From positions 33,731 to 97,730 of the forward strand of contig JAJFJJ010000049.1 of the NCBI GenBank assembly GCA_021774195.1: 64,000 nt of DNA, written 5' to 3'. This document shows positions 6,255 to 64,000 of the stretch, piece by piece. A program made the translations under genes and the position numbers. Numbering within the stretch: the first letter of the stretch is position 1; every line of letters starts with the position of its first letter. Source of the DNA: Nitrosomonas sp. (GTDB taxonomy: Bacteria; Pseudomonadota; Gammaproteobacteria; Burkholderiales; Nitrosomonadaceae). The notes beneath the pieces are model-generated. The model did not search any database. It was not told the DNA's origin and saw only the letters and a list, made by a program, of their open reading frames with translations.

Positions 6255-6476
6255 TTTATCCTAAAATCCTCAGTTGGATGGTGTTTAGAGTGCGATATTG
6301 TTTCTTTTCGGCAAGGCGCAACGAGAAGTGAACGAGTTATTGCAACGAATTGCGACACAGCAAAAATGAAAGAATAGCGAGGTATACCTAAAAGGTGTGT
6401 TTCATATTAAGAATATTATTCGTAATTTCATGAGGTTGATTTTTTTGTAGCGAACAACTGAGGAATTTAGGTTTAT
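6255..6476 (+). mobile_element. MITE-like repeat family A, copy 1 (222 bp)
   Basis: 17-nt terminal inverted repeats cctaaaatcctcagttg and caactgaggaatttagg, each flanked by TTTAT. Near-identical copies lie at 58043-58286 and, inverted, at 63526-63767. This copy lacks about 22 nt that are present in the other two. Confidence 0.85.
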
Positions 6477-6480
6477 TGAA

Positions 6481-7575
6481 ATGTTTACCCCAGCTGACTA
6501 CACCTTTATGGCTCAAGCGTTACAACTGGCAGCAAGGGGACGCTATAGCACATCCCCTAACCCACGTGTCGGTTGCATAATCACTAAAAATAATCAGGTT
6601 ATCGCCCAGGGCTGGCATGAAAAAGCGGGACAACCGCACGCGGAAATTAATGCACTGCGTTCAACTACAGAAGACGTTCACGGTGCCACCGCTTACATTA
6701 CTCTAGAACCATGCAACCATCATGGACGCACGCCGCCTTGCGCCGAAGCATTAGTTCATGCAGGTGTTAGGAAAGTAATCATTGCTATGCAAGACCCTAA
6801 CCCCCTGGTATCCGGCAGTGGTTGCACATTACTACAACAAGCAGGGATTATCGTAGAAACCGGTCTGTTACAAGACCAAGCCCATCAGCTCAACCTTGGT
6901 TTTATCCATCGAATGAAGGAAAACAAACCATGGGTTAGATTAAAAATAGCGGCCAGTTTGGATGGTAAAACCGCACTAAATAATGGCGCCAGTCAATGGA
7001 TAACCGGTGAAGCAGCACGCCGTGATGGTCATCGATGGCGAGCGCGCTCATGTGCAATCCTAACCGGTTCCGGCACATTAAGACACGATGATCCACAGCT
7101 TACTGTTCGGCATATCGAAACATCAAGACAACCAAAGAAAGTAGTGGTTGATAAAAAGCTAGCCATCCCCTTGGGAGCGAAACTACTGCAAGGCGAAAAT
7201 GTGATTATTTTCACAGCATGTGCAGAGAATAATCAAAAAATTACTGCATTAAAAGAATTGGGCGTACTTGTCATTGTTCTACCGGATACAGGCGGCAAAG
7301 TAAATCTCGTTGACATGATGCATCAACTCGCCAATCTGGAAATTAATGAATTGTTAGTGGAAGCAGGTAGTGGTTTAAATGGTGCCTTAATTCATGCCGG
7401 TCTAGTTGACGAATTGATTATTTATTTAGCGCCCCATTTATTAGGCCATGTGGCACAAGGCATGGTAAATCTGCCAGAATTGAACAGCCTTACAAATAAA
7501 CATTCGCTGGATATCCAGGATGTTCGTATGATTGGGCAAGATATTCGTATTACTGCCAAGTTACATCACCACTAA
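6481..7575 (+). CDS. ribD: Bifunctional riboflavin biosynthesis protein RibD (deaminase/reductase)
   Basis: HAEINAL and TLEPCNHHGRTPPC zinc-deaminase motifs plus a C-terminal reductase domain. Confidence 0.95.
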   Translation: MFTPADYTFMAQALQLAARGRYSTSPNPRVGCIITKNNQVIAQGWHEKAGQPHAEINALRSTTEDVHGATAYITLEPCNHHGRTPPCAEALVHAGVRKVIIAMQDPNPLVSGSGCTLLQQAGIIVETGLLQDQAHQLNLGFIHRMKENKPWVRLKIAASLDGKTALNNGASQWITGEAARRDGHRWRARSCAILTGSGTLRHDDPQLTVRHIETSRQPKKVVVDKKLAIPLGAKLLQGENVIIFTACAENNQKITALKELGVLVIVLPDTGGKVNLVDMMHQLANLEINELLVEAGSGLNGALIHAGLVDELIIYLAPHLLGHVAQGMVNLPELNSLTNKHSLDIQDVRMIGQDIRITAKLHHH

Positions 7576-24333: not shown

Positions 24334-26148
24334 TCAAGCTGCAACTCGAGAAGCACGTTTACGTTCATGCTCTAATAGTAAACGTTTACGAATACGAATG
24401 TTTTGAGGTGTGATTTCGACCAATTCATCATCAGTAATAAATTCAATCGCTGATTCCAATGTGAGTTGGATTGGTGGTGTTAGTGTTACAGCTTCATCGG
24501 TCCCTGATGCGCGAATATTGGTTAACTGTTTACCCTTAATCGGGTTAACAACAAGATCGTTATCACGACTGTGAATACCTATCACCATACCTTCATATAA
24601 ACGATCACCCGGGCTAACAAACATACGGCCACGTTCTTGTAATTTCCACAAGGCATAGGCAACTGCTTCACCCTTCTCAGCAGAGATTAAAACACCGTTT
24701 CTACGTGGCGGAATTTCTGCCCGCATTGGTGCAAATTCATCAAATACATGGCTCATTAATCCTGTTCCTCGTGTCATGGTCATAAATTCAGATTGGAAAC
24801 CAATCAAACCACGGGCAGGGATACGATAGTCTAATCTAGTTCGACCTTTAGAATCGGAAACCATATCTTGTAAATCACCACGGCGTGACCCTAAAGCTTC
24901 CATCACAGCGCCTTGATTTGCTTCTTCCACATCAACAGTGAGCATTTCAAATGGTTCACATTTCTCACCGTCTATTTCGCGGATTACGACATGTGGTCGA
25001 GATACGGCTAGTTCATAACCTTCACGACGCATATTTTCCAACAAAATAGTCAGATGTAACTCGCCACGTCCAGAAACTAAAAAAGAATCTGTATCCTTGG
25101 TGTCTTCCAAGCGCATGGCAACGTTAGTCAGTAGTTCTTTTTCCAAACGTTCGCGCAACTGTCGACTCGTAATGAATTTGCCTTCTTGTCCGGCAAAAGG
25201 CGAAGTATTGACCTGAAAAGTCATGGTTAGTGTTGGTTCATCAACCGCTTGAATGGGTAATGCTTCAGGTTCATTGATATCAGCAATGGTTGTACCAATG
25301 CTGAGTTCTTCAATACCATTAATGAGCACAATGTCGCCTGCTAAGGCTTCCTTCATCTGAACACGTTCCAGACCGTTAAATCCAAGTACTTGATTAACTC
25401 TAGCTTTTTTGGGTGTTTTATCCCCAGTTAAGACCATCACATCTTGAGCCGGTTTTAAACGTCCACGACGGACTCGGCCAACGCCGATACGACCGACGAA
25501 ACTAGAATAATCTAATGCACTGATTTGTAATTGTAATGGTTCGTCAGGATCGCCTTCAGGCGATTGTACATGTTTAATGATGGTATCAAACAAAGGACGC
25601 ATATCTTCACTGGGTTTTTCTTGATCCAGCATGGCAAAACCATTGAGTGCCGAAGCATAAACCACTGGAAAGTCGAGTTGGTCGTCATTTGCACCTAACT
25701 TATCGAATAAATCAAAAGTTTGGTCTACCACCCAATCAGGACGTGCGCCGGGTCGGTCTATCTTATTAATTACGACAATCGGACGTAAACCTAATGCCAA
25801 TGCCTTCTTAGTTACAAAACGGGTTTGTGGCATTGGACCTTCTACCGCATCAACTAATAGCAATACGCCATCAACCATCGATAAAACGCGTTCTACTTCA
25901 CCACCGAAATCTGCATGACCAGGCGTATCGACAATATTAATGTGAATATCTTCGTAATCTATGGCACAATTTTTAGATAGAATTGTAATGCCGCGTTCCC
26001 GTTCAATATCATTAGAGTCCATTACGCGATCAGAAATTTGCTGGTGTGCGGCAAAAGTACCAGCCTGATGTAATAGTTTATCCACCAGCGTTGTTTTGCC
26101 GTGGTCAACGTGAGCAATAATAGCGATATTGCGAATAGGGCGAGACAT
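24334..26148 (-). CDS. typA: Translational GTPase TypA/BipA
   Basis: [20 protein letters not shown]1 motif, DTPGHADF, 604 aa. Confidence 0.97.
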
Positions 26149-26288
26149 AAATAATTCCTCAAAAATAAGCTGTTAGTTGATGCAATGGGGGGCGACATTA
26201 TAGCAGTCGATTGATAATATAGCTAACTAATAGTCTGATTGAATTTCTTTTAAACTAAAAAGTAGATTATATCCATGTTGATGATGAA

Positions 26289-27257
26289 ATGAATGTTCAA
26301 ATACCTGCACATATTTGTTATTTATCTGAATCCATATTAGATAGCTTGCAATTGACAAGTCAAGACGTGGTTAAAAGTATAGAGCACCTGATTTACGGTC
26401 GTAGTCAATCGCAAGTATGGAATGCACCAAAAGCTGTCATAACGCCGCCTGATGGACGATACATGATGGCCACATTGGCTGCAGCGAATGATCCACCATT
26501 TCTTGCAGTCAAATCACTGCTACTCAATCCAGAAAACCCAAAGCGTGGACTTAAAAGTATTAATTCATTAGTGACCTTGATGGATAGTGATACCGGGTTA
26601 CCATTGGCTATTCTGGATGGGAACTGGATCACAGCAATTCGCACAGCAGGATTAAGTGCTGTGGCAGCAAAACGGCTTGCCAGAACGGATTCTTCTGTCG
26701 CAGCGTTTATCGGTTGTGGCGTACAGGCACATAGTCATTTAAAAATTTTCTCTGAATTATTTCCATTAAAAGAAATTAGAGTATTTGGCCGGGGTGTTCT
26801 TAATCAAGATAAACTTTGTCAAAGTGCAATAGATATTGGTTTATCTGCTGTTGCCAGCAAAACCGCACAAGATGCTGTACACAATGCTGATCTAATCATC
26901 ACTTCGGTAACCCTATCACCACAACTTCAACCTTTTTTGGATGCACGTTGGCTAAAGCCGGGTGTTTTTGTCACCATGACGGACTTGGCGCTACCTTGGT
27001 TTACTGAAAGTATGTCAGTATTTGATCGAATTGTTGTTGATGATCTAGAGCAGGAATCTAGCATGACAAAACCATTGGTGGACCCAGCACTGGTTTCTGG
27101 AGATCTTACTGGTTTGGTCAATGGCGATATTGCAGGTCGTTGTAATGAAAATGAACGATCTGCCTTTATTTTTCGTGGTCTTGCTTTAGGGGATCTTGCT
27201 GTTGCTGGGTTAGCTTATCAGAAAGCTATTGAATGTCATAAAAGTATGTTGTTTTAA
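26289..27257 (+). CDS. Ornithine cyclodeaminase/mu-crystallin family protein
   Basis: About 320 aa with a Rossmann segment AAFIGCGVQAHSHL and overall OCD-family appearance. Substrate unknown. Confidence 0.75.
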   Translation: MNVQIPAHICYLSESILDSLQLTSQDVVKSIEHLIYGRSQSQVWNAPKAVITPPDGRYMMATLAAANDPPFLAVKSLLLNPENPKRGLKSINSLVTLMDSDTGLPLAILDGNWITAIRTAGLSAVAAKRLARTDSSVAAFIGCGVQAHSHLKIFSELFPLKEIRVFGRGVLNQDKLCQSAIDIGLSAVASKTAQDAVHNADLIITSVTLSPQLQPFLDARWLKPGVFVTMTDLALPWFTESMSVFDRIVVDDLEQESSMTKPLVDPALVSGDLTGLVNGDIAGRCNENERSAFIFRGLALGDLAVAGLAYQKAIECHKSMLF

Positions 27258-51169: not shown

Positions 51170-51560
51170 GTAATTATTCAGTACACTGTGGTAACTGTTC
51201 AGATTGCCTCTAGAATTCATCAGTTCAACCTAGAAGAATCAGTTGAACACAGAATTTGTATTGAATCTAAGGTCACAAGACAAGGCGCCGTTCGCAGCCA
51301 ATGGCCGTAGTCCTTGGCAAGAGCGGCAACACAGTATAGTGGCCTTAGATTCAATGCAAAACTGTGTAGCGTTATTACAATCACCTTTATGGTGTGCAAA
51401 ACGCTTAGTTTTCATATTTGTAATTCAGTTACTTATATGCGGTTTTAGCGGTCAACTGATTTTTCTAGGTTCAAGGCACAAATGTGAGTTTACACGTGTA
51501 AATGATCATTTTGTAACGCAGAAATGGTGAATTCTAGGGGTGAACTGAATAGTTACTGAC
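51170..51560 (+). mobile_element. MITE-like repeat family B, full-length copy (about 390 bp)
   Basis: Termini gtaattattcagt... and ...ctgaatagttac are inverted, with a conserved ctagaattc/gaattctag inboard. An internal 29-nt-arm hairpin spans 51247-51276 and 51339-51367. Related copies lie at 59544-59685 and 57934-57971. Confidence 0.75.
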
Positions 51561-54378: not shown

Positions 54379-55263
54379 ATGACACACAAAAAAGAGCGCT
54401 ATAATTCAAACAAATTACATAAACGCCTACGGCGTCAGGTTGGAACGGCGATTGCGGACTTCAACATGATTGAAGCTGGTGACCGGGTGATGGTTTGTCT
54501 GTCTGGTGGCAAGGATAGCTACGCGCTACTGGATATTTTGACCAACTTGCAAGCCCATGCGCCATTGGAATTTGAACTGATCGCTGTCAATTTGGACCAA
54601 AAACAACCCGGCTTCCCAGAGCAAGTTTTGCCCGAATACCTGACTAAGATTGGTATGCCCTTCCATATTGTTGAGCAAGATACCTATAGCGTGGTTAAAC
54701 GGGTGATTGCCGAAGGAAAAACCACTTGCAGCCTTTGTTCACGTTTACGTCGTGGAGTGCTGTATCGTGTCGCCAGCGAACTGGGTGCGACTAAAATTGC
54801 TTTAGGCCATCACCGTGATGATATTTTGGAAACGCTTTTCCTCAACATGTTTTATGGCGGCAAGCTCAAAGCCATGCCGCCCAAACTGGTTAGTGACAAC
54901 GGCCAGCACATTGTGATTCGCCCCTTGGCATATTGCAAAGAAAAGGACTTGGCCGCGTATGCGGCGATTACTGATTTTCCCATTATTCCGTGCAATTTAT
55001 GCGGCACGCAGCCAAACATGCAACGCCAAGTCATCAAGGAGATGATGCAGCAATGGGACAAGCAGTTTCCCGGTAGGTTAGAGACGATGTTTAGAGCGAT
55101 TCAAAATGTTCAGTTATCACATTTGGCAGATACCGGTCGCTATGACTTTTGTCATTTAAAAACGCAAGACAGTCCTGTTGTAGATGGTGATATTGCATTT
55201 GATGAGGAAATATTTGAACCCACTATCGAAGAATTGACGGTATCGGTTTCGGAATCTTCTTAG
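54379..55263 (+). CDS. ttcA: tRNA 2-thiocytidine(32) biosynthesis protein TtcA
   Basis: PP-loop SGGKDS with CSLC and CNLC cysteine pairs. Confidence 0.94.
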
Positions 55264-55375
55264 ACACTACTTAACGAGCGGTTCAATTGTCACATCGTTT
55301 GTAACGGTAGTTTTGCTGTGAACACATTGTGTTAAGCTAGAATTACGCTGATGATGAAAAAACTCGGGGTGGATT

Positions 55376-57751
55376 ATGAGTGCTAACCAAAACAAAACGG
55401 AAAGTAAAATACCCAATCGTGGGGAATTACAACAACGGTTGCAAGTATTGGTCGAACGCGACCGTGAGGCTCTGGCAGTATTTGCTGCACGATGCGCGTT
55501 GCGGGTACTGCCTTTAACTGCCGTCAAAGGTGCTTTTAACTATTGGCCTAGCGAGAAACAGCAAGCGTATGCACACAGTGTTTTTGCCGCTAGTGTGATG
55601 GGACTGGCGTATAAAGAGACGGCTCATTTTGTTGCTATCGCCACCGCTGCTTCTGCTGCTGCGACCGATGCCTCAGTTTCCTCTTCTCCCACTTACGACG
55701 ACGTTGCCGCCGCCTCAGCCGCCTATGCCACTACCGCTGCCTATGCTGCCGCTACAACCTACGCCTCTGCTGCTACTGCCGCCTATAATGACGCCACTGC
55801 TGCCGCTGCCGCCACCTACGCCGCCGCTTCCTCCGCTTCCTCTGATTTGGTTTTGTTGGAGCAAGGTGAGGTGTTGTCAGTTAAACAAAGTGCGTTGTGG
55901 CTGGGTCAGCGTCCTTCTAGAAGCGCGGAACAAGTTGATGCCTGGTCAGAGGCCATGAGGGCTTTGAAACTGAGTGAGTTGGCGCAATTTTATGGCGATT
56001 TGTTGCGAGGTGAGCGGTATTCTAGTGACAGATTACTTGGATTGATTCATGATTGGTATGAGCAATATGGTTATCAATATACTAAGAAAATAGAAGTCAA
56101 AATTAAAAAACCTAAAGCCAAAACCAAAGACCAAAGTCGAGCTAAGGCAAAAATCCAGGTTGAATCAGATTTGTTGCCGAAAGAAACTGCTTCGTTGCCA
56201 AAAGAAACTGTTAGATATGAACAAACTCATGCCAATATATATGATGGGTTGGCCGAGAGAGATGCTTTGGGACGCCAACAACTGGCTGAAGCGATGGTTG
56301 CTATTTTGTCGGCTAAAGAAAACCATCAACATCAAACCATTGGTTTACTTGGCGATTGGGGAGCGGGCAAGAGTACGTTCGTTAATTTGCTCAAGCAATC
56401 CATACAGGAAAAATCAAAGATTCCCTTTTTATTCGCCGAATTTAACGCCTGGGAATATGTGCATACCGGTAACATACAAGCCGGTATGACCCGTGAGGCG
56501 TTGAAAGGTCTTGTTAGTGATTTAGGTTGGTGGCAAAAGCTTGATTTAGCTTGGAAATTTACTTGGCAAGAAAAACCTTGGTATGTGTATCGCCTATTGC
56601 TGGCAACGGCCGGGTTGATTATAGGGACTATAGTTGGTTCACTTCAGTTTGATGGTTGGGAGCAATTTTTCGCATGGATCGGATTGGGTAGTGTGAGTGC
56701 TTTGATCATCTGGAAATTTATTTGTTCATTACAAGCACTATTCAATAGCCCCTTGGTGAAAGAATGGAAAAGTGTATTAAACCAAGCGGATCACGATCAT
56801 TATCTAGGCACGATTCCGGTGATGAAGCAGCAGATTCGCAAGTTATGTAAATTAAGGTTGGGTTTAGGCAAAGATAAACCAGCTGCTGCACAAAAACGTT
56901 TGTTATTTGTGGTGGATGATTTGGACCGTTGTAATCATATTGACGTGGTCAAAATCTTGGAAGCTGTGCGTCTGATTATGGGAGTACCGCAGGTGACGGT
57001 AATTATTGCGATTGATCAACGCATTGCATTAGCCTCGTTAGCATTGCATTACAAAGACTTGGAAGAATCTCATGTGGGACGAGATCCGGGTACGATTGCG
57101 CGGGATTATCTGGGTAAGGTGATTCAAATGCCGGTTCAGCTACATGCTGCGGATGGAAATACAGTGACCTCATTTATCAATCAAGTGTTGTTGAATGATG
57201 CGGAGAAACCCATACTAAAAAAAACTTCGGGAGTTCCAAATCGTCCAAATAAAAATGAACACTCAACACCATCTAATCCGCTTGATATGGAACTGCTTGG
57301 ATCAGGGCCAGATTCACTTTACCCTTTAGGCAAAGGCGTATCAGAGAAGCCATCATTCAAAGTGCCTGTCATAGGAAAAATTGAATATCAATTAAGTCCA
57401 AAGGAAAAACAAGTATTCAAAGATCGTGTCAAGCAGTTTGGGTTCCATAACCCTCGCCAGATTAAGCGTTTGTATAACAGCTTTAATTTATTGCGTCATC
57501 TGAATGGTAGTGATCAAGCTGATGACCATATGTTGGTACTATTTTGGTTGGAGTATTTGAATAGCTCATCAGAAAATGAAGCTGGCTCTGGCAAGAACAA
57601 GGATTTAATGACATTAAATACTGAACGTTATCAGGTCATTGAAAAACAAGTGAAACCGTTTGTGCTGCCAGCGTTGGATAAGTCTTTGAGTGAAAATGTG
57701 AGTAGCCCTAGTACTAGACCAATGGATACTGGATTCACTGATGAAATTTAA
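55376..57751 (+). CDS. KAP-family P-loop NTPase with TM helices inserted in the NTPase domain and an Ala/Thr/Tyr-rich N-terminal module
   Basis: Walker A GDWGAGKST (about 56351-56377) and Walker B LLFVVDDLDRC (about 56901-56933), separated by two hydrophobic helices (VYRLLLATAGLIIGTIVGSL and FFAWIGLGSVSALIIWKFICSL). C-terminal NPRQIKRLYN motif. Confidence 0.88.
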   Translation: MSANQNKTESKIPNRGELQQRLQVLVERDREALAVFAARCALRVLPLTAVKGAFNYWPSEKQQAYAHSVFAASVMGLAYKETAHFVAIATAASAAATDASVSSSPTYDDVAAASAAYATTAAYAAATTYASAATAAYNDATAAAAATYAAASSASSDLVLLEQGEVLSVKQSALWLGQRPSRSAEQVDAWSEAMRALKLSELAQFYGDLLRGERYSSDRLLGLIHDWYEQYGYQYTKKIEVKIKKPKAKTKDQSRAKAKIQVESDLLPKETASLPKETVRYEQTHANIYDGLAERDALGRQQLAEAMVAILSAKENHQHQTIGLLGDWGAGKSTFVNLLKQSIQEKSKIPFLFAEFNAWEYVHTGNIQAGMTREALKGLVSDLGWWQKLDLAWKFTWQEKPWYVYRLLLATAGLIIGTIVGSLQFDGWEQFFAWIGLGSVSALIIWKFICSLQALFNSPLVKEWKSVLNQADHDHYLGTIPVMKQQIRKLCKLRLGLGKDKPAAAQKRLLFVVDDLDRCNHIDVVKILEAVRLIMGVPQVTVIIAIDQRIALASLALHYKDLEESHVGRDPGTIARDYLGKVIQMPVQLHAADGNTVTSFINQVLLNDAEKPILKKTSGVPNRPNKNEHSTPSNPLDMELLGSGPDSLYPLGKGVSEKPSFKVPVIGKIEYQLSPKEKQVFKDRVKQFGFHNPRQIKRLYNSFNLLRHLNGSDQADDHMLVLFWLEYLNSSSENEAGSGKNKDLMTLNTERYQVIEKQVKPFVLPALDKSLSENVSSPSTRPMDTGFTDEI

Positions 57752-57933
57752 AATTGTGAACGGTCTGAATGGATCGTGCTAGCACAGCACAATCGCCAAG
57801 ACACTTTCGAAATTCACCAAAATAACTGTGATCTGATGCCTTTTCTTCAAGACTCAGATCACAGAATCATTTGCCAGAAGAATCTCCTGTAAAGCGCCAT
57901 TTGTAAAAATCTAGATTTCATCCCAACAGAGGA

Positions 57934-57971
57934 TTTAGGGCCAATCAGAACAGTTACCACAATACACTGAA
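57934..57971 (-). repeat. Solo terminal fragment of repeat family B
   Basis: tttagggccaatcagaacagttaccacaatacactgaat matches the end of the B copies (compare 59645-59681). Confidence 0.65.
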
Positions 57972-58042
57972 TCGTTCTGCTTGGCATTTCGGTGGATTTC
58001 AAGACATAATGATCGCTAACTAAAATTATCTATTTTGGGTTC

Positions 58043-58286
58043 TTTATCCTAAAATCCTTAGTTGGATGGTGTTTAGAGTGCGCTATTGTTTCTTTTTGGC
58101 AAGGCGCAATGAGGAGTAATAACGAGTTATTGCAACGAATTGCAACACGGCTAAAATGAAAGAATAGCGTGCTATAAACATCATAGCGGGGTTCACCAAA
58201 AAGGTATGTATTATATTAAAAATATTATTTGTAATTTCATGAGGTTGGTTGTTTTTGTAGCGATCAACTGAGGAATTTGGGTTTAT
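58043..58286 (+). mobile_element. MITE-like repeat family A, copy 2 (244 bp)
   Basis: Same inverted termini and TTTAT flanks as copy 1. Its last bases (gtttAT) run into the ATG at 58285. Confidence 0.85.
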
Positions 58287-59547
58287 GAGTGATGCAGCGA
58301 CAATAAACGATTATCTTGTCCAACAGAAGGAATCCCAAGTAATCGAAAATAAACAGGAATCAGGCCATTGCTTTGTGCCACCAGAGGAAGATGGATTGCC
58401 GCCTGAATGGCTCTATCTTAGTAATCATTTGCATGACCGGCTTGAGGCCGTTCGTGCAGATAAGAAAAGCAAATCCACCATCCTATGTGTTCCAATTCCG
58501 GATAATGGTTCCATCCCAAGAATGCTTAATCGAGTCTTCAATATTGACGCGGTTAATCAAATGGTTGGCAAGGCCCTTGGCACCGGCGAACAACCGACAC
58601 CCGATGTGGATGTTAATATCGATGATGACCATGCCTTCTTTGAAGCAGAAATTGAGGAGGAGGATGAGATTGATCAAGATAACCGGCAAGAGATCCGCGC
58701 CACTGGCGTATTAAAATTTTTTGATCTGGTTCCAGACTGGTTGTCCAGTAAACTGGATGCATCAATTGTCCCGTTTGAAGACAGATGGCTCGCTACATTG
58801 GACATCAATATCAAAAGCACCGGGCACATCATGGTCAGCCCAATCCCGCTTGGTATGCCATTGGATTCCACCAATAAAAGAATTATCGTCACCTCTTTTA
58901 TGAAAGGCACGGTCAACTCCAATCAAGATGTACCCTATCCGATGGATGTCGAATTTGATTATGACCCAATGCTAGGCTTTCTCGACGATGATATTGATAT
59001 TCCAGGTGAAGGGGTAAAAACGATCATGACGATTAATGAAATTTATGATTCTGGCGCGACAGTCGACCAACAAATTAAAACGCTCAACAAAGCTGGCGCC
59101 GAACAAGAAAACTTCGTAAATAGCGTCGTGGCCGAGGTCATACCTGACAAGCAAGATGATGATCAAGAATTCGAAGCCGTGGAAGATGATGAATTATTAG
59201 AAGTGGAATTAACATTAACTGGTCATCGCAAAGAAGAGATTGAGCTAATACTAGAGCAGCAGGTCGTATTGTATGTGCATCCAGACCAAGTTGAATATGC
59301 AAAAGCGCAATTGGCTGAAAGTCTGATTTTTTTTACTGCCGATATGTCACTTTCGGTCGGCTTGTATAATCCCGGTGCGCCGCCGAATGGCCTTGAGAAT
59401 GTCGAGGAAAATGATTTCCTGCAGTTCTACCTAAATATTAAAGAAGGCAATGGTGGTAAGCTGGAAGACGCGATCATTTTACATGGCGGACCGTTACTGG
59501 CACTTGCTAAAATAAAGTTGCCCAATCTAAATATAAAAGAAAAGTAA
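58285..59547 (+). CDS. Very acidic hypothetical protein (420 aa), no recognisable domain
   Basis: Long ORF with Asp/Glu-rich runs (IDDDHAFFEAEIEEEDEIDQD, DKQDDDQEFEAVEDDELLE). A GAGGA Shine-Dalgarno-like sequence lies 10 nt upstream, inside the MITE. Confidence 0.65.
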   Translation: MSDAATINDYLVQQKESQVIENKQESGHCFVPPEEDGLPPEWLYLSNHLHDRLEAVRADKKSKSTILCVPIPDNGSIPRMLNRVFNIDAVNQMVGKALGTGEQPTPDVDVNIDDDHAFFEAEIEEEDEIDQDNRQEIRATGVLKFFDLVPDWLSSKLDASIVPFEDRWLATLDINIKSTGHIMVSPIPLGMPLDSTNKRIIVTSFMKGTVNSNQDVPYPMDVEFDYDPMLGFLDDDIDIPGEGVKTIMTINEIYDSGATVDQQIKTLNKAGAEQENFVNSVVAEVIPDKQDDDQEFEAVEDDELLEVELTLTGHRKEEIELILEQQVVLYVHPDQVEYAKAQLAESLIFFTADMSLSVGLYNPGAPPNGLENVEENDFLQFYLNIKEGNGGKLEDAIILHGGPLLALAKIKLPNLNIKEK

Positions 59548-59685
59548 CTATTCAGCATACATTAAGAATCCATCATTTCTGTGTTACAAAATGATCATTT
59601 ACACGTGTAAACTCACATTTTTCGCCTTGAACTGATGAATTCTAGGGGCAATCAGAACAGTTACCGAAATATACTGAATAATTAC
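59544..59685 (-). mobile_element. MITE-like repeat family B, internally deleted copy (about 140 bp)
   Basis: Joins the reverse complement of B1's right part (about 51480-51560) to the reverse complement of B1's left end (51170-51230). The terminus gTAActattcag contains the stop codon of the acidic ORF. Confidence 0.75.
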
Positions 59686-59874
59686 CCATAAGTTTTATCT
59701 TATAGGTAATAATCCAGAAGAAACAGTAGGTTATTCTGCGCGTGTATAATTCCCCTGAAATTAATCGATATGTAATTGTAAAAATGTATCAAACATATCC
59801 ATTTCCTGCAGGAAGTATGAGAACATTATTTGAATAGAAGGTAACTGTACGCAATAGGATATGAAGAACTAAAC

Positions 59875-60330
59875 ATGAAAGAAGAAAAACAAAAAAGTCA
59901 TCGAAGACTAGCACGTGAATTGGTTGTGCAAGGTGTCTATCAATGGCGCACTGCCGGAGGAACGACAAGCAGTATTGGAGAACAGTTATCTGATTCTGAG
60001 AATTATGTGCTTTCAGACCGGAAATATTTAACCCAACTGTTTCAAGGTATTTTAGACAGTTCGGTAGATTTAGAGACTCAAATCCAACCTTGCCTTGATC
60101 GCCCACTTAAAGAGTTAAGCCCGGTCGAATACTCAATTTTGTTATTGAGTACCTATGAGTTAAAGAATCATTTGGATATTCCCTATAATGTGATTATTAA
60201 TGAAGCGATTGAGCTGGCCAAAACTTTTGGTGGAATGGGCGGCCACAAATATATCAATGGGGTGTTAGATAAGGTGGCTGCTACGCTTCGGGATAAAGAA
60301 TTTGCATTAAAGAATAAGATTAAGCATTAG
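59875..60330 (+). CDS. nusB: Transcription antitermination factor NusB
   Basis: RRLARELVVQGVYQW N-terminus and nusB-thiL-pgpA synteny. Confidence 0.93.
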   Translation: MKEEKQKSHRRLARELVVQGVYQWRTAGGTTSSIGEQLSDSENYVLSDRKYLTQLFQGILDSSVDLETQIQPCLDRPLKELSPVEYSILLLSTYELKNHLDIPYNVIINEAIELAKTFGGMGGHKYINGVLDKVAATLRDKEFALKNKIKH

Positions 60331-62379: not shown

Positions 62380-63529
62380 TATAAAATGGCTCGAGCAAGA
62401 CGAGCCGAGATCTGCTGTTTGGCGTTCGGAAAAAGGATTGCCGCCTCCAAAGCAAGTGTTGATAGCAGATGATAAGATGTCTGCTGATATTGCTTATCGT
62501 GCGGCTTGTGAAGGTAAGGCCTTGTTATGGCGTGGAGATTTTCAAAATGCTCGTCAATTACTGCAGGCAATAGCGCGACGAATCGATAAAAAACCGCGTA
62601 AACGTAAAGTTAAAAAAGAAGCTTGCACACCTGCTGAATCCTTTCATTTGTATCGACAGACCCAATCTCAACATGCGCGAATTTTGGGTATGCTGTTGAT
62701 AGCGGTCGAGTCAGATCATCATATTCCTTTAAGGCGTGCACCAGATGTGCGCCAAGCCTGCTCAGATGTTTTTGGGCCTGGAACCGAACCGTATGTTATT
62801 TCGCTACGCGAGTTGCAGGGGCTGATCGGTGCCTATGAATGGCGCAAGAATGGGGTTGAAGTGCCGGTGTTGGGTGCACGTATTTACCCGCATTACGGTG
62901 TATTTGCACCAATCCGCAGCGAATATGTCGGCTTGGTGGCACGGGCAAATTTGCCTCAGCAAGTTATGAAAGGTTCCGTGGTATTTGATATTGGAACAGG
63001 AACTGGTGTGTTGGCAGCCGTTTTAGCGAGTCGTGGTATTCAGCATGTGATTGCAACTGATCAGGATGAACGGGCATTAAACTGTGCCCGCGAGAATTTG
63101 ATGCGGTTGGGTTTTGCGGAACAGGTTAATGTGGTACAGGCGGACTTGTTTCCGTCAGGCCGGGCTGGTTTGATTGTTTGTAATCCGCCTTGGCTACCTG
63201 CTCGACCGAGTGCGCCAATTGAACGCGCCGTATTTGATCCGGATAATCAAATGTTATTTGGTTTTTTGAGGGGGTTAAAAGAACATTTGCTGCCTGATGG
63301 TGAAGGGTGGCTAATTTTGTCCGATTTGGCCGAACATTTAGGCTTGCGTACACGTGATGAATTGCTCGAGGTCATCAATGATGCAGGTTTGACGGTATTG
63401 GGAAAGTCTGATGTAAAACCGCATCATCCTCGTGTGTCCGATAGCGATGACTCCCTTCATGCCGCTCGCGCAGCGGAATTAACGTCACTATGGCGATTAG
63501 CTACGAAGCCGGTAAAGGCAGTGCCATAA
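62372..63529 (+). CDS. Class I SAM-dependent methyltransferase with NPPW motif and an N-terminal domain of unknown function
   Basis: Motif I VFDIGTGTGVLAAVLA and motif IV LIVCNPPWLP (the N6-adenine/N5-glutamine/m2G type). The stop codon lies in the terminus of MITE A copy 3. Confidence 0.8.
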   Translation: MGNIKWLEQDEPRSAVWRSEKGLPPPKQVLIADDKMSADIAYRAACEGKALLWRGDFQNARQLLQAIARRIDKKPRKRKVKKEACTPAESFHLYRQTQSQHARILGMLLIAVESDHHIPLRRAPDVRQACSDVFGPGTEPYVISLRELQGLIGAYEWRKNGVEVPVLGARIYPHYGVFAPIRSEYVGLVARANLPQQVMKGSVVFDIGTGTGVLAAVLASRGIQHVIATDQDERALNCARENLMRLGFAEQVNVVQADLFPSGRAGLIVCNPPWLPARPSAPIERAVFDPDNQMLFGFLRGLKEHLLPDGEGWLILSDLAEHLGLRTRDELLEVINDAGLTVLGKSDVKPHHPRVSDSDDSLHAARAAELTSLWRLATKPVKAVP

Positions 63530-63767
63530 ACCTAAATTCCTCAGTTGATCGCTACAAAAACAATCAACCTGATGAAATTGCGAATAATATTTTTAATATG
63601 ATAGACACCATTTTGGTGAGCCTCGCTATGATGTTTATAGCACGCTATTGTTTCATTTTTGCTGTGTTGCAATTCGTTGTGAACTCGTTATTACTCTTCA
63701 TTGCGCCTTGCCAAAAAGAAACAATATCGCACTCTAAACACCATCCAACTGAGGATTTTAGGATAAA
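63526..63767 (-). mobile_element. MITE-like repeat family A, copy 3 (242 bp, inverted)
   Basis: Reverse complement of copy 2 over its whole length, with ATAAA flanks on both sides. Fills the gap between two convergent genes. Confidence 0.85.
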
Positions 63768-63778
63768 AGACATGCAAA

Positions 63779-64000
63779 TTATAACTCGGTATATTTTTTC
63801 GCGATTCCCTTCGATTTCTCAATCGGGTATTTTTGTGCGTTCTTTTCGAGTTTATCAAATACAATTTGTTTGACATCTAAATCGTATTTCTCTGCCAATA
63901 GAATAGCGAACGTGAATACATCAGCAAGTTCTTCTTTCACTTGATTGATATTGGCATTTTCTGGAGACTTCCATAGGAAAACTTCGAGCAACTCTGCGGC
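63779..64000 (-). CDS. MazG-like nucleotide pyrophosphohydrolase (C-terminal part; gene runs off the right window edge)
   Basis: The EELADVFTFAILLAEKYDLD helix pair is typical of MazG-type all-alpha NTP pyrophosphatases. The frame is open to the window edge. Confidence 0.7.
   Translation of the reverse strand, partial: AAELLEVFLWKSPENANINQVKEELADVFTFAILLAEKYDLDVKQIVFDKLEKNAQKYPIEKSKGIAKKYTEL

Follow-up and report, generated by a model that had tools for sequence, protein, structure and literature searches.

The 64-kb stretch of Nitrosomonas sp. DNA analyzed here (the window: 64,000 nucleotides of contig JAJFJJ010000049.1) carries two adjacent genes between ttcA and nusB. The first encodes a KAP-family P-loop NTPase, the second a strongly acidic protein. 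In the original prediction, made from the sequence alone, they were regarded as a possible two-gene module of an NTPase and its partner. Our comparison with other genomes leads to a different picture. The two genes are probably unrelated in function and were probably joined by rearrangement at a synteny breakpoint rich in miniature inverted-repeat transposable elements (MITEs), the KAP protein being a putative single-gene conflict NTPase. Recurrent co-occurrence of the two genes, which had been set beforehand as the test of a module, was not found.

Linkage of the Two Genes

Loci were compared with profile hidden Markov models (HMMs) of the KAP and acidic proteins, run on the six-frame open reading frames (ORFs) of all fetched loci (cited below by L numbers, homologous proteins by P numbers). 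No KAP gene was detected in the 8-10 kb flanking each of the 26 other acidic-gene loci (0/26), and the acidic gene is absent from all other fetched KAP loci. By these scans, the window is the only place in which both are found together. Two genomes carry both genes. They are separated by ~41 kb in the metagenome-assembled genome (MAG) HK-STAS-PROT-97 and lie on different contigs in Co_bin.240.

This absence of linkage, elsewhere and in genomes that have both genes, argues against a sensor/effector pair or a two-gene defence module acquired jointly as an accessory islet. Two same-strand ORFs are indeed present between ttcA and the nusB-thiL-pgpA block, as had been claimed, and their arrangement speaks for the idea: they are adjacent, 533 bp apart, without assigned function and both situated between repeats. 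However, the lineage-wide presence of the acidic gene contrasts with the sporadic occurrence of KAP, and the two are separated by a hairpin, a piece of MITE B and one complete MITE A. A joint module is therefore considered highly improbable. Had the pair been real, it would have constituted a new two-gene defence system. MITE-mediated shuffling can build pseudo-operons that resemble accessory modules.

Distribution of the Acidic Gene

The acidic gene was searched for in one genome per GTDB species. It was detected in 21 species-level marine or estuarine Nitrosomonas genomes, and all detected species belong to the N. marina / N. aestuarii lineage. Most of these species (at least 15 of 21) have the gene convergent with mltA-NIF3-degP, and in L006/L029 it is convergent with a gene for an SLT-domain protein. 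In two loci (L002:6184-9380 and L030:8008-11233), a family member instead comes immediately behind motA-motB, where a flagellar cluster ends. Altogether, the context differs in at least five species. The acidic protein is 61-70% identical between genomes, against 69-80% for the neighbouring mltA in most comparisons; a divergence this near to that of mltA is as expected for vertical inheritance. We infer that the acidic gene is a lineage-restricted core gene with a function independent of KAP.

The protein had been described as an orphan with no recognizable motif, and only the second half of this description stands. A search of 5.8 billion proteins yielded ~50 homologues of 52-70% identity, the named ones all coming from Nitrosomonas (N. 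marina, Nm51) or from MAGs of the same lineage. A profile search with a 28-sequence alignment returned the same 51 proteins only and none more distant. More than 100 residues are invariant in the family alignment, and all of them are kept in the window copy. No match was obtained in Pfam, NCBIfam, PADLOC or PHROGs, the four family libraries against which both proteins were compared, nor in a sequence-profile comparison with the PDB, nor by tblastn against plasmids and phages.

The acidic protein has an isoelectric point (pI) of 4.24 and a net charge of -49. Its AlphaFold2 (AF2) model is beta-rich with long strands, at a mean predicted local distance difference test (pLDDT) of 68 and a predicted template modelling score (pTM) of 0.70. 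Foldseek found no significant match to this model in the PDB (best E 0.12, TM-score ≤0.1) or in BFVD. Neither a signal peptide nor a hydrophobic segment was found, and the protein is presumably cytoplasmic.

A role of the acidic protein in the cell envelope or in motility might be proposed, the gene having simply been displaced in the window. The convergent mltA and SLT-domain genes and the position after motAB would suit such a role. A convergent orientation is not an operon, however, and the variable contexts, together with the missing signal peptide, hydrophobic segment and fold or family match, argue against it; this explanation is rather unlikely. The family, well conserved and without detected fold relatives, is of possible interest for the biology of ammonia oxidizers.

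Distribution of the KAP Gene

Homologues of the KAP protein are fewer (~20 at 44-56% identity) and derive mostly from metagenomes or Nitrosomonas-like contigs. None is named after a cultured strain (N. marina, N. aestuarii or Nm51). The gene is sporadic among relatives and occupies four or more different loci. It follows ttcA in the window and an aminotransferase gene in L008 and L009. In L111-L113, representing the sub-clade of P0056 and P0057, it overlaps by ATGA with the gene of a 191-aa dCMP_cyt_deam_1 deaminase. In L114 (4556-7399), it takes the form of a TIR-KAP fusion, located after a toxin-antitoxin pair (a small ORF and a YafQ-like toxin) and before rpe; this fusion is 56% identical to the window protein in the best local alignment, which covers the KAP part. 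No partner gene is common to the four neighbourhoods.

The KAP gene is accessory. In L008 (6383-10010, from MAG HK-STAS-PROT-97), a DDE_Tnp_1 insertion sequence splits the homologue within its N-terminal domain, so the gene is dispensable there. The earlier suggestion of a conflict gene in a variable, MITE-rich spot is plausible for the KAP gene, given its sporadic occurrence, its varied loci, the split copy, the exchange of its N-terminus for TIR and the conflict-type fusions described below.

The deaminase pairs lie at L111:6001-8858, L112:3012-5869 and L113:63-2881, and the enzyme is distinct from TadA (28 bits, cut-off 150). KAP and deaminase may form a genuine pair in the P0056/P0057 sub-clade. 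The deaminase was not found in the window or at the other KAP loci.

A Synteny Breakpoint between ttcA and nusB

The junction had been taken for an islet inserted between ttcA and nusB, which does not agree with the organization of related genomes. Relatives for the synteny comparison were obtained by scanning metagenomes with ttcA, the matches being 82-88% identical. In four of them (L031, L032, L034 and L035), the block of cytochrome c, DUF411, cupredoxin and ttcA is kept, while the downstream side differs. There, ttcA is followed by DUF2784, BON, AhpC/TSA, dsbD, cutA, ornithine cyclodeaminase (OCD) and bipA genes, and nusB, the KAP gene and the acidic gene are all missing from the 10 kb next to it. 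As ttcA is followed by other genes in the relatives, ttcA-nusB is a synteny breakpoint.

The OCD and bipA genes, 4.5-7 kb 3' of ttcA in the relatives, are found in the window at 24334-27257, ~27 kb upstream and inverted. Their displacement and inversion point to large-scale rearrangement of the genome. As the whole history of the locus, we considered one inversion with the oppositely oriented MITE B copies (51170 and 59544) as its end points, but it fits the OCD/bipA side only. The other side lacks synteny to the relatives, and the history must thus be more complex than one inversion.

The repeats themselves, as originally described, are all present: a solo end of MITE B, the second copy of MITE A, a deleted copy of MITE B and a perfect 11-bp hairpin. 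Both elements are small, non-coding, bounded by terminal inverted repeats and present in several copies, as MITEs are. Element A is ~245 bp long, with imperfect terminal inverted repeats of ~20 bp that match at 18/22 positions. Three copies are found in the window, and further copies in other Nitrosomonas contigs (L012 and L019) could be included in a five-way alignment. There is no obvious target-site duplication in common at the flanks of the three copies. The 37-bp fragment of MITE B is 89% identical to 59643-59679 and 84% identical to 51176-51212.

The acidic gene is exactly bracketed by these elements (A at the start codon, B at the stop codon), an arrangement that suggests its relocation. 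MITE A copy 2 puts a GAGGAA motif 9 nt 5' of the acidic ATG. The TAA stop codon of the ORF comes from the deleted MITE B, so that the variable, basic C-terminal tail of the homologues is missing. The same end of MITE A (...CTGAGGAATTTRGGTTTAT) is seen at the starts of ribD and of the acidic ORF (6255-6483 and 58043-58287), with the Shine-Dalgarno-like GAGGAA 9-15 nt upstream. Genes 3' of MITE A may obtain translation or transcription signals from it, and the acidic gene would probably be expressed from signals within the element. MITEs are placed at other operon boundaries too, an example being MITE A copy 1 in the gap separating nrdR from ribD.

In short-read Logan assemblies of this organism, breaks coincide with MITEs A and B, and contig ends fall inside MITE A (L007 and L115). 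Another Logan contig, of 1,346 bp, carries the acidic ORF alone.

The KAP NTPase Core

On the basis of its sequence, the window protein is a KAP-family NTPase with a predicted membrane anchor. The Pfam model KAP_NTPase (PF07693) matches residues 301-709, spans profile positions 2-292 of 293 and scores 120.2 bits (cut-off 20). The hallmarks previously pointed out (Walker A, two transmembrane (TM) helices before Walker B, and the NPRQIKRLYN motif) were each found where they had been placed. In Walker A, residues G326, W328, G329, G331 and K332 are identical in all 17 homologues aligned, and the DDLDRC core of Walker B is kept in at least 90% of the homologues. Two hydrophobic helices, ~403-423 and ~431-452, are predicted between Walker A and Walker B from hydropathy only (Kyte-Doolittle, 19-residue windows >1.6 at 402-407 and 431-437). 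The match above the HMM threshold, the intact Walker motifs and the TM helices inside the P-loop domain are together what characterizes the family.

The N-Terminal Domain of the KAP Protein

The long N-terminus had not been assigned to any family, and residues 1-300 are indeed unmatched in all four libraries. A Pfam scan of residues 1-240 with E up to 5 gave zero matches, the EAD (effector-associated domain), Death-like and TRADD-N models included. The AF2 model of this part is an all-alpha bundle of 11 helices (pLDDT 75.6, pTM 0.71). Foldseek against the PDB returned nothing significant, the best matches being membrane helical bundles and DUF416 at a probability of ≤0.25.

Relatives of the domain are informative. 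With phmmer, 1.8 billion representatives were searched exhaustively, giving 132 matches, and Pfam domains were surveyed in 95 of them. KAP was present in 27, Roc/COR in 20, TIR in two and EAD11 in two; fusions to NACHT/nSTAND, TRADD-N and calcineurin-like phosphoesterase (metallophosphatase) domains were also seen. Short proteins consisting of homologues of the domain exist too. In the KAP homologues P0067 and P0074, a TIR domain stands in place of the N-terminal domain. Their best local alignments with the window protein, in the KAP part, reach 56% identity, a closeness equal to that of homologues in which the domain is retained. The domain is thus common to different NTPase classes and interchanges with an effector such as TIR, as EAD-type domains do. 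Judged from these alignments and architectures, it behaves as a swappable module.

The center of the domain is hypervariable. Among nine close homologues, pairwise identity is 14-36% in this part (~81-160) versus 70-96% in the KAP core. Between L111 and L113, the nonsynonymous divergence (dN) of the center is 0.5-0.75, and its ratio to the synonymous divergence (dN/dS) is 0.24-0.62, against ≤0.2 elsewhere. Along the gene, dS is saturated and mosaic, from 0.15 to ~2, and the mosaic pattern suggests recombination. Because of this saturated, mosaic dS and of a dN/dS below 1, positive selection on the center is not shown. No template-like repeat of the variable region, as in diversification by a diversity-generating retroelement, was found within the window; reverse-transcriptase genes were not searched for.

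A partner elsewhere in the genome was considered as well, either an effector sharing the N-terminal domain, following the logic of EAD systems, or the deaminase. In EAD systems, the NTPase carries one copy of the domain and effectors carry further ones (PMC8195603), and the short proteins as well as the EAD11, TRADD-N and metallophosphatase fusions would be in line with such an organization; the ATGA overlap in L111-L113 would be in line with the second option. Yet an HMM of the domain found only the KAP gene in the window and, in the 8-kb flanks of L008 and L009, no second copy except the fragment split off by the insertion sequence. The restricted occurrence of the deaminase and the contexts of L009 and L114, which hold no candidate partner, likewise speak against this explanation, to which we assign a low probability.

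Interpretation of the KAP Gene

We favour a KAP protein that would act alone, as a single-gene anti-invader device. The membrane-anchored NTPase would be a nucleotide-driven switch, and the N-terminal module could be the output or invader-contacting part, released or oligomerized when the switch fires. The acidic gene would have been relocated next to it by recombination among MITE copies.

Several points weigh against this interpretation. The defence role of this KAP clade is putative, and no PADLOC or NCBIfam system model is matched at full length by the protein. The flanks consist of housekeeping genes and not of a defence island. The effector-or-sensor role of the N-terminal domain comes from its domain partners only, as there is no significant fold match, and relaxed constraint on its low-complexity, Ala-rich center may explain the raised dN/dS. 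The relocation of the acidic gene is deduced from repeat positions only, and the same-strand layout may be compatible with read-through transcription. Finally, the source genome was examined over the 64-kb window, and a partner gene may exist outside it.

Some of these points would equally suit a membrane-associated housekeeping or signalling NTPase, with the Ala-rich N-terminal domain as a poorly constrained structural region. In addition to the housekeeping neighbours and the lack of a full-length defence-model match, the G+C content of the gene outside the Ala-rich stretch agrees with that of the genome, and dN/dS is below 1. Against this, the gene has a patchy distribution, a varied locus and a split copy, the last a sign of dispensability. 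Its N-terminal domain is replaced by TIR in close homologues and is fused elsewhere to Roc-COR, NACHT, EAD11 and TRADD-N, and the nearest named relatives of the KAP protein are QatA and PifA. A housekeeping function hence has little likelihood.

A more far-reaching proposal goes beyond the single-gene conflict NTPase. The N-terminal domain, in which a conserved frame surrounds the hypervariable Ala-rich center, would be an undescribed sensor or effector module, interchangeable across KAP, Roc-COR and NACHT/STAND proteins, and the gene would define a new class of single-gene, membrane-anchored immune sensors in ammonia oxidizers; separately, the acidic protein would represent a lineage-restricted family with a novel fold. 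This proposal is tentative, and we think it somewhat doubtful.

Features of the Locus

The features of the region are collected in Table 1. All genes between 54.4 and 60.3 kb are on the + strand, in the order ttcA, 791-aa ORF, 533-bp spacer, 420-aa ORF, 327-bp spacer and nusB-thiL-pgpA. The 11-bp hairpin, located 75 nt 3' of the KAP stop codon, lacks a T-run and was not called by the terminator scan. Zero Rfam families matched in the region, where promoter- and terminator-like sites are not more frequent than in shuffled sequence.

Table 1. Coordinates of the genes, protein segments and repeats discussed in the text (window positions).
Feature	Position	Strand	Remarks
ttcA	54379..55263	+	PP-loop tRNA 2-thiocytidine synthase; left housekeeping flank; Pfam ATP_bind_3 9.5e-16
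KAP-family P-loop NTPase gene	55376..57751	+	791 aa; Pfam KAP_NTPase 1.3e-34
N-terminal all-alpha domain	55418..56092	+	~240 residues (15-239); AF2 model
Hypervariable Ala/Ser/Thr-rich center	55616..55855	+	residues ~81-160; alignment of close homologues
Lys-rich disordered linker	56093..56245	+	residues 240-290; pLDDT <50; pI 9.7; length varies in alignment
Walker A GDWGAGKST	56351..56377	+	residues 326-334
Predicted two-helix membrane hairpin within P-loop domain	56582..56731	+	residues ~403-452; hydropathy
Walker B VVDDLDRC	56909..56932	+	residues 512-519
C-terminal KAP motif NPRQIKRLYN	57449..57478	+	residues 692-701; nearly invariant among homologues
Perfect 11-bp inverted repeat	57826-57836 / 57854-57864		17-nt loop; arms CTGTGATCTGA / TCAGATCACAG
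MITE B terminal-repeat fragment (solo end)	57936-57972	+	37 bp
MITE A copy 2	58043-58286	+	last bases are the first two of the acidic ORF ATG
Acidic protein gene	58285..59547	+	420 aa; lineage-restricted family; intact except truncated variable C-terminal tail
MITE B internally deleted copy	59544-59685	+	142 bp; mostly two terminal repeats
nusB	59875..60330	+	right housekeeping flank, then thiL and pgpA; Pfam NusB 2.6e-29
MITE A copy 1	6255-6476	+	between nrdR and ribD; ends 4 nt 5' of ribD start codon
MITE B full copy	51170-51556	-	387 bp; terminal inverted repeats ~36-57 bp; orientation opposite to copy at 59544
MITE A copy 3	63526-63770	-	

Two ORFs in the region are spurious. The one at 63490-63873 (+) is inside MITE A copy 3, and the one at 55629-55958 (+) reads the Ala-rich stretch of the KAP gene in another frame. 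A 70-aa ORF at 63779-63991 (-), at the edge of the window and adjoining MITE A copy 3, matches a MazG-like family (2.7e-15).

Comparison with Known Systems

The best named match of the KAP protein is QatA (PADLOC 7.7e-27, NCBIfam 3.4e-29). Plasmid sequences found by tblastn are also annotated as qatA and are 23-27% identical over the KAP domain. The protein was nevertheless rejected as a QatA, reaching 102 bits against an NCBIfam equivalog cut-off of 600. The plasmid and QatA matches lack the N-terminal domain of the window protein, and QatB, QatC (QueC-family) and QatD (TatD nuclease) are not adjacent to the KAP gene, whose neighbours are ttcA and the acidic ORF. PifA, involved in the exclusion of phage T7 by the F plasmid, shares the KAP P-loop domain (PADLOC 1.6e-12), but the best-matched stretch is the Walker A region only (residues 294-359), so that the two are not full-length relatives.

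In its organization, the window gene resembles Tmn, a single-gene anti-phage KAP NTPase with two unusual TM helices and a mechanism that is not known (PMC11846954). It too is a stand-alone KAP gene with two predicted TM helices and no conserved partner across four neighbourhoods. The window protein differs by its additional 240-residue all-alpha N-terminal domain, which has homologues on Roc-COR and NACHT proteins. PADLOC hits with E up to 1 included no model named Tmn, although the Tmn content of this library was not verified and DefenseFinder was not scanned.

EF_KAP and other KAP-fused antiphage proteins have a membrane helix inside the domain, and defence by them needs both Walker B and the fused region (PMC13552941, PLoS Biol 2026). 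The window protein is similarly a KAP with a membrane segment inside the domain, fused to an uncharacterized region, and regulation of the fused module by the NTPase is a proposed further likeness. The fused region is C-terminal in EF_KAP and N-terminal in the window protein; the likeness in sequence considered here is that of the KAP domain.

The N-terminal domain also recalls the EAD-coupled NTPase systems. KAP, Ras-like AP-GTPase and STAND NTPases are known to interchange behind N-terminal adaptor or effector domains, TIR included (PMC8195603, section 7; Kaur, Burroughs, Iyer, Aravind, eLife 2021), and the window domain shows the same set of partners. It differs in that it matches no Pfam EAD model and has no second copy nearby. 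The protein lacks a C-terminal FGS, NPCBM or repeat sensor, and its host is not a multicellular bacterium.

In our best reading, the KAP protein is a further example of an already-known type, the KAP NTPase fused to a variable module, with an N-terminal domain that is uncurated. This KAP clade adds that domain to the modules attached to conflict-type NTPases. Because its homologues are fused to Roc-COR and NACHT and TIR replaces it in close KAP homologues, the domain offers a good starting point to find related systems and to test how the proposed membrane-anchored switch of KAP proteins is coupled to an output.

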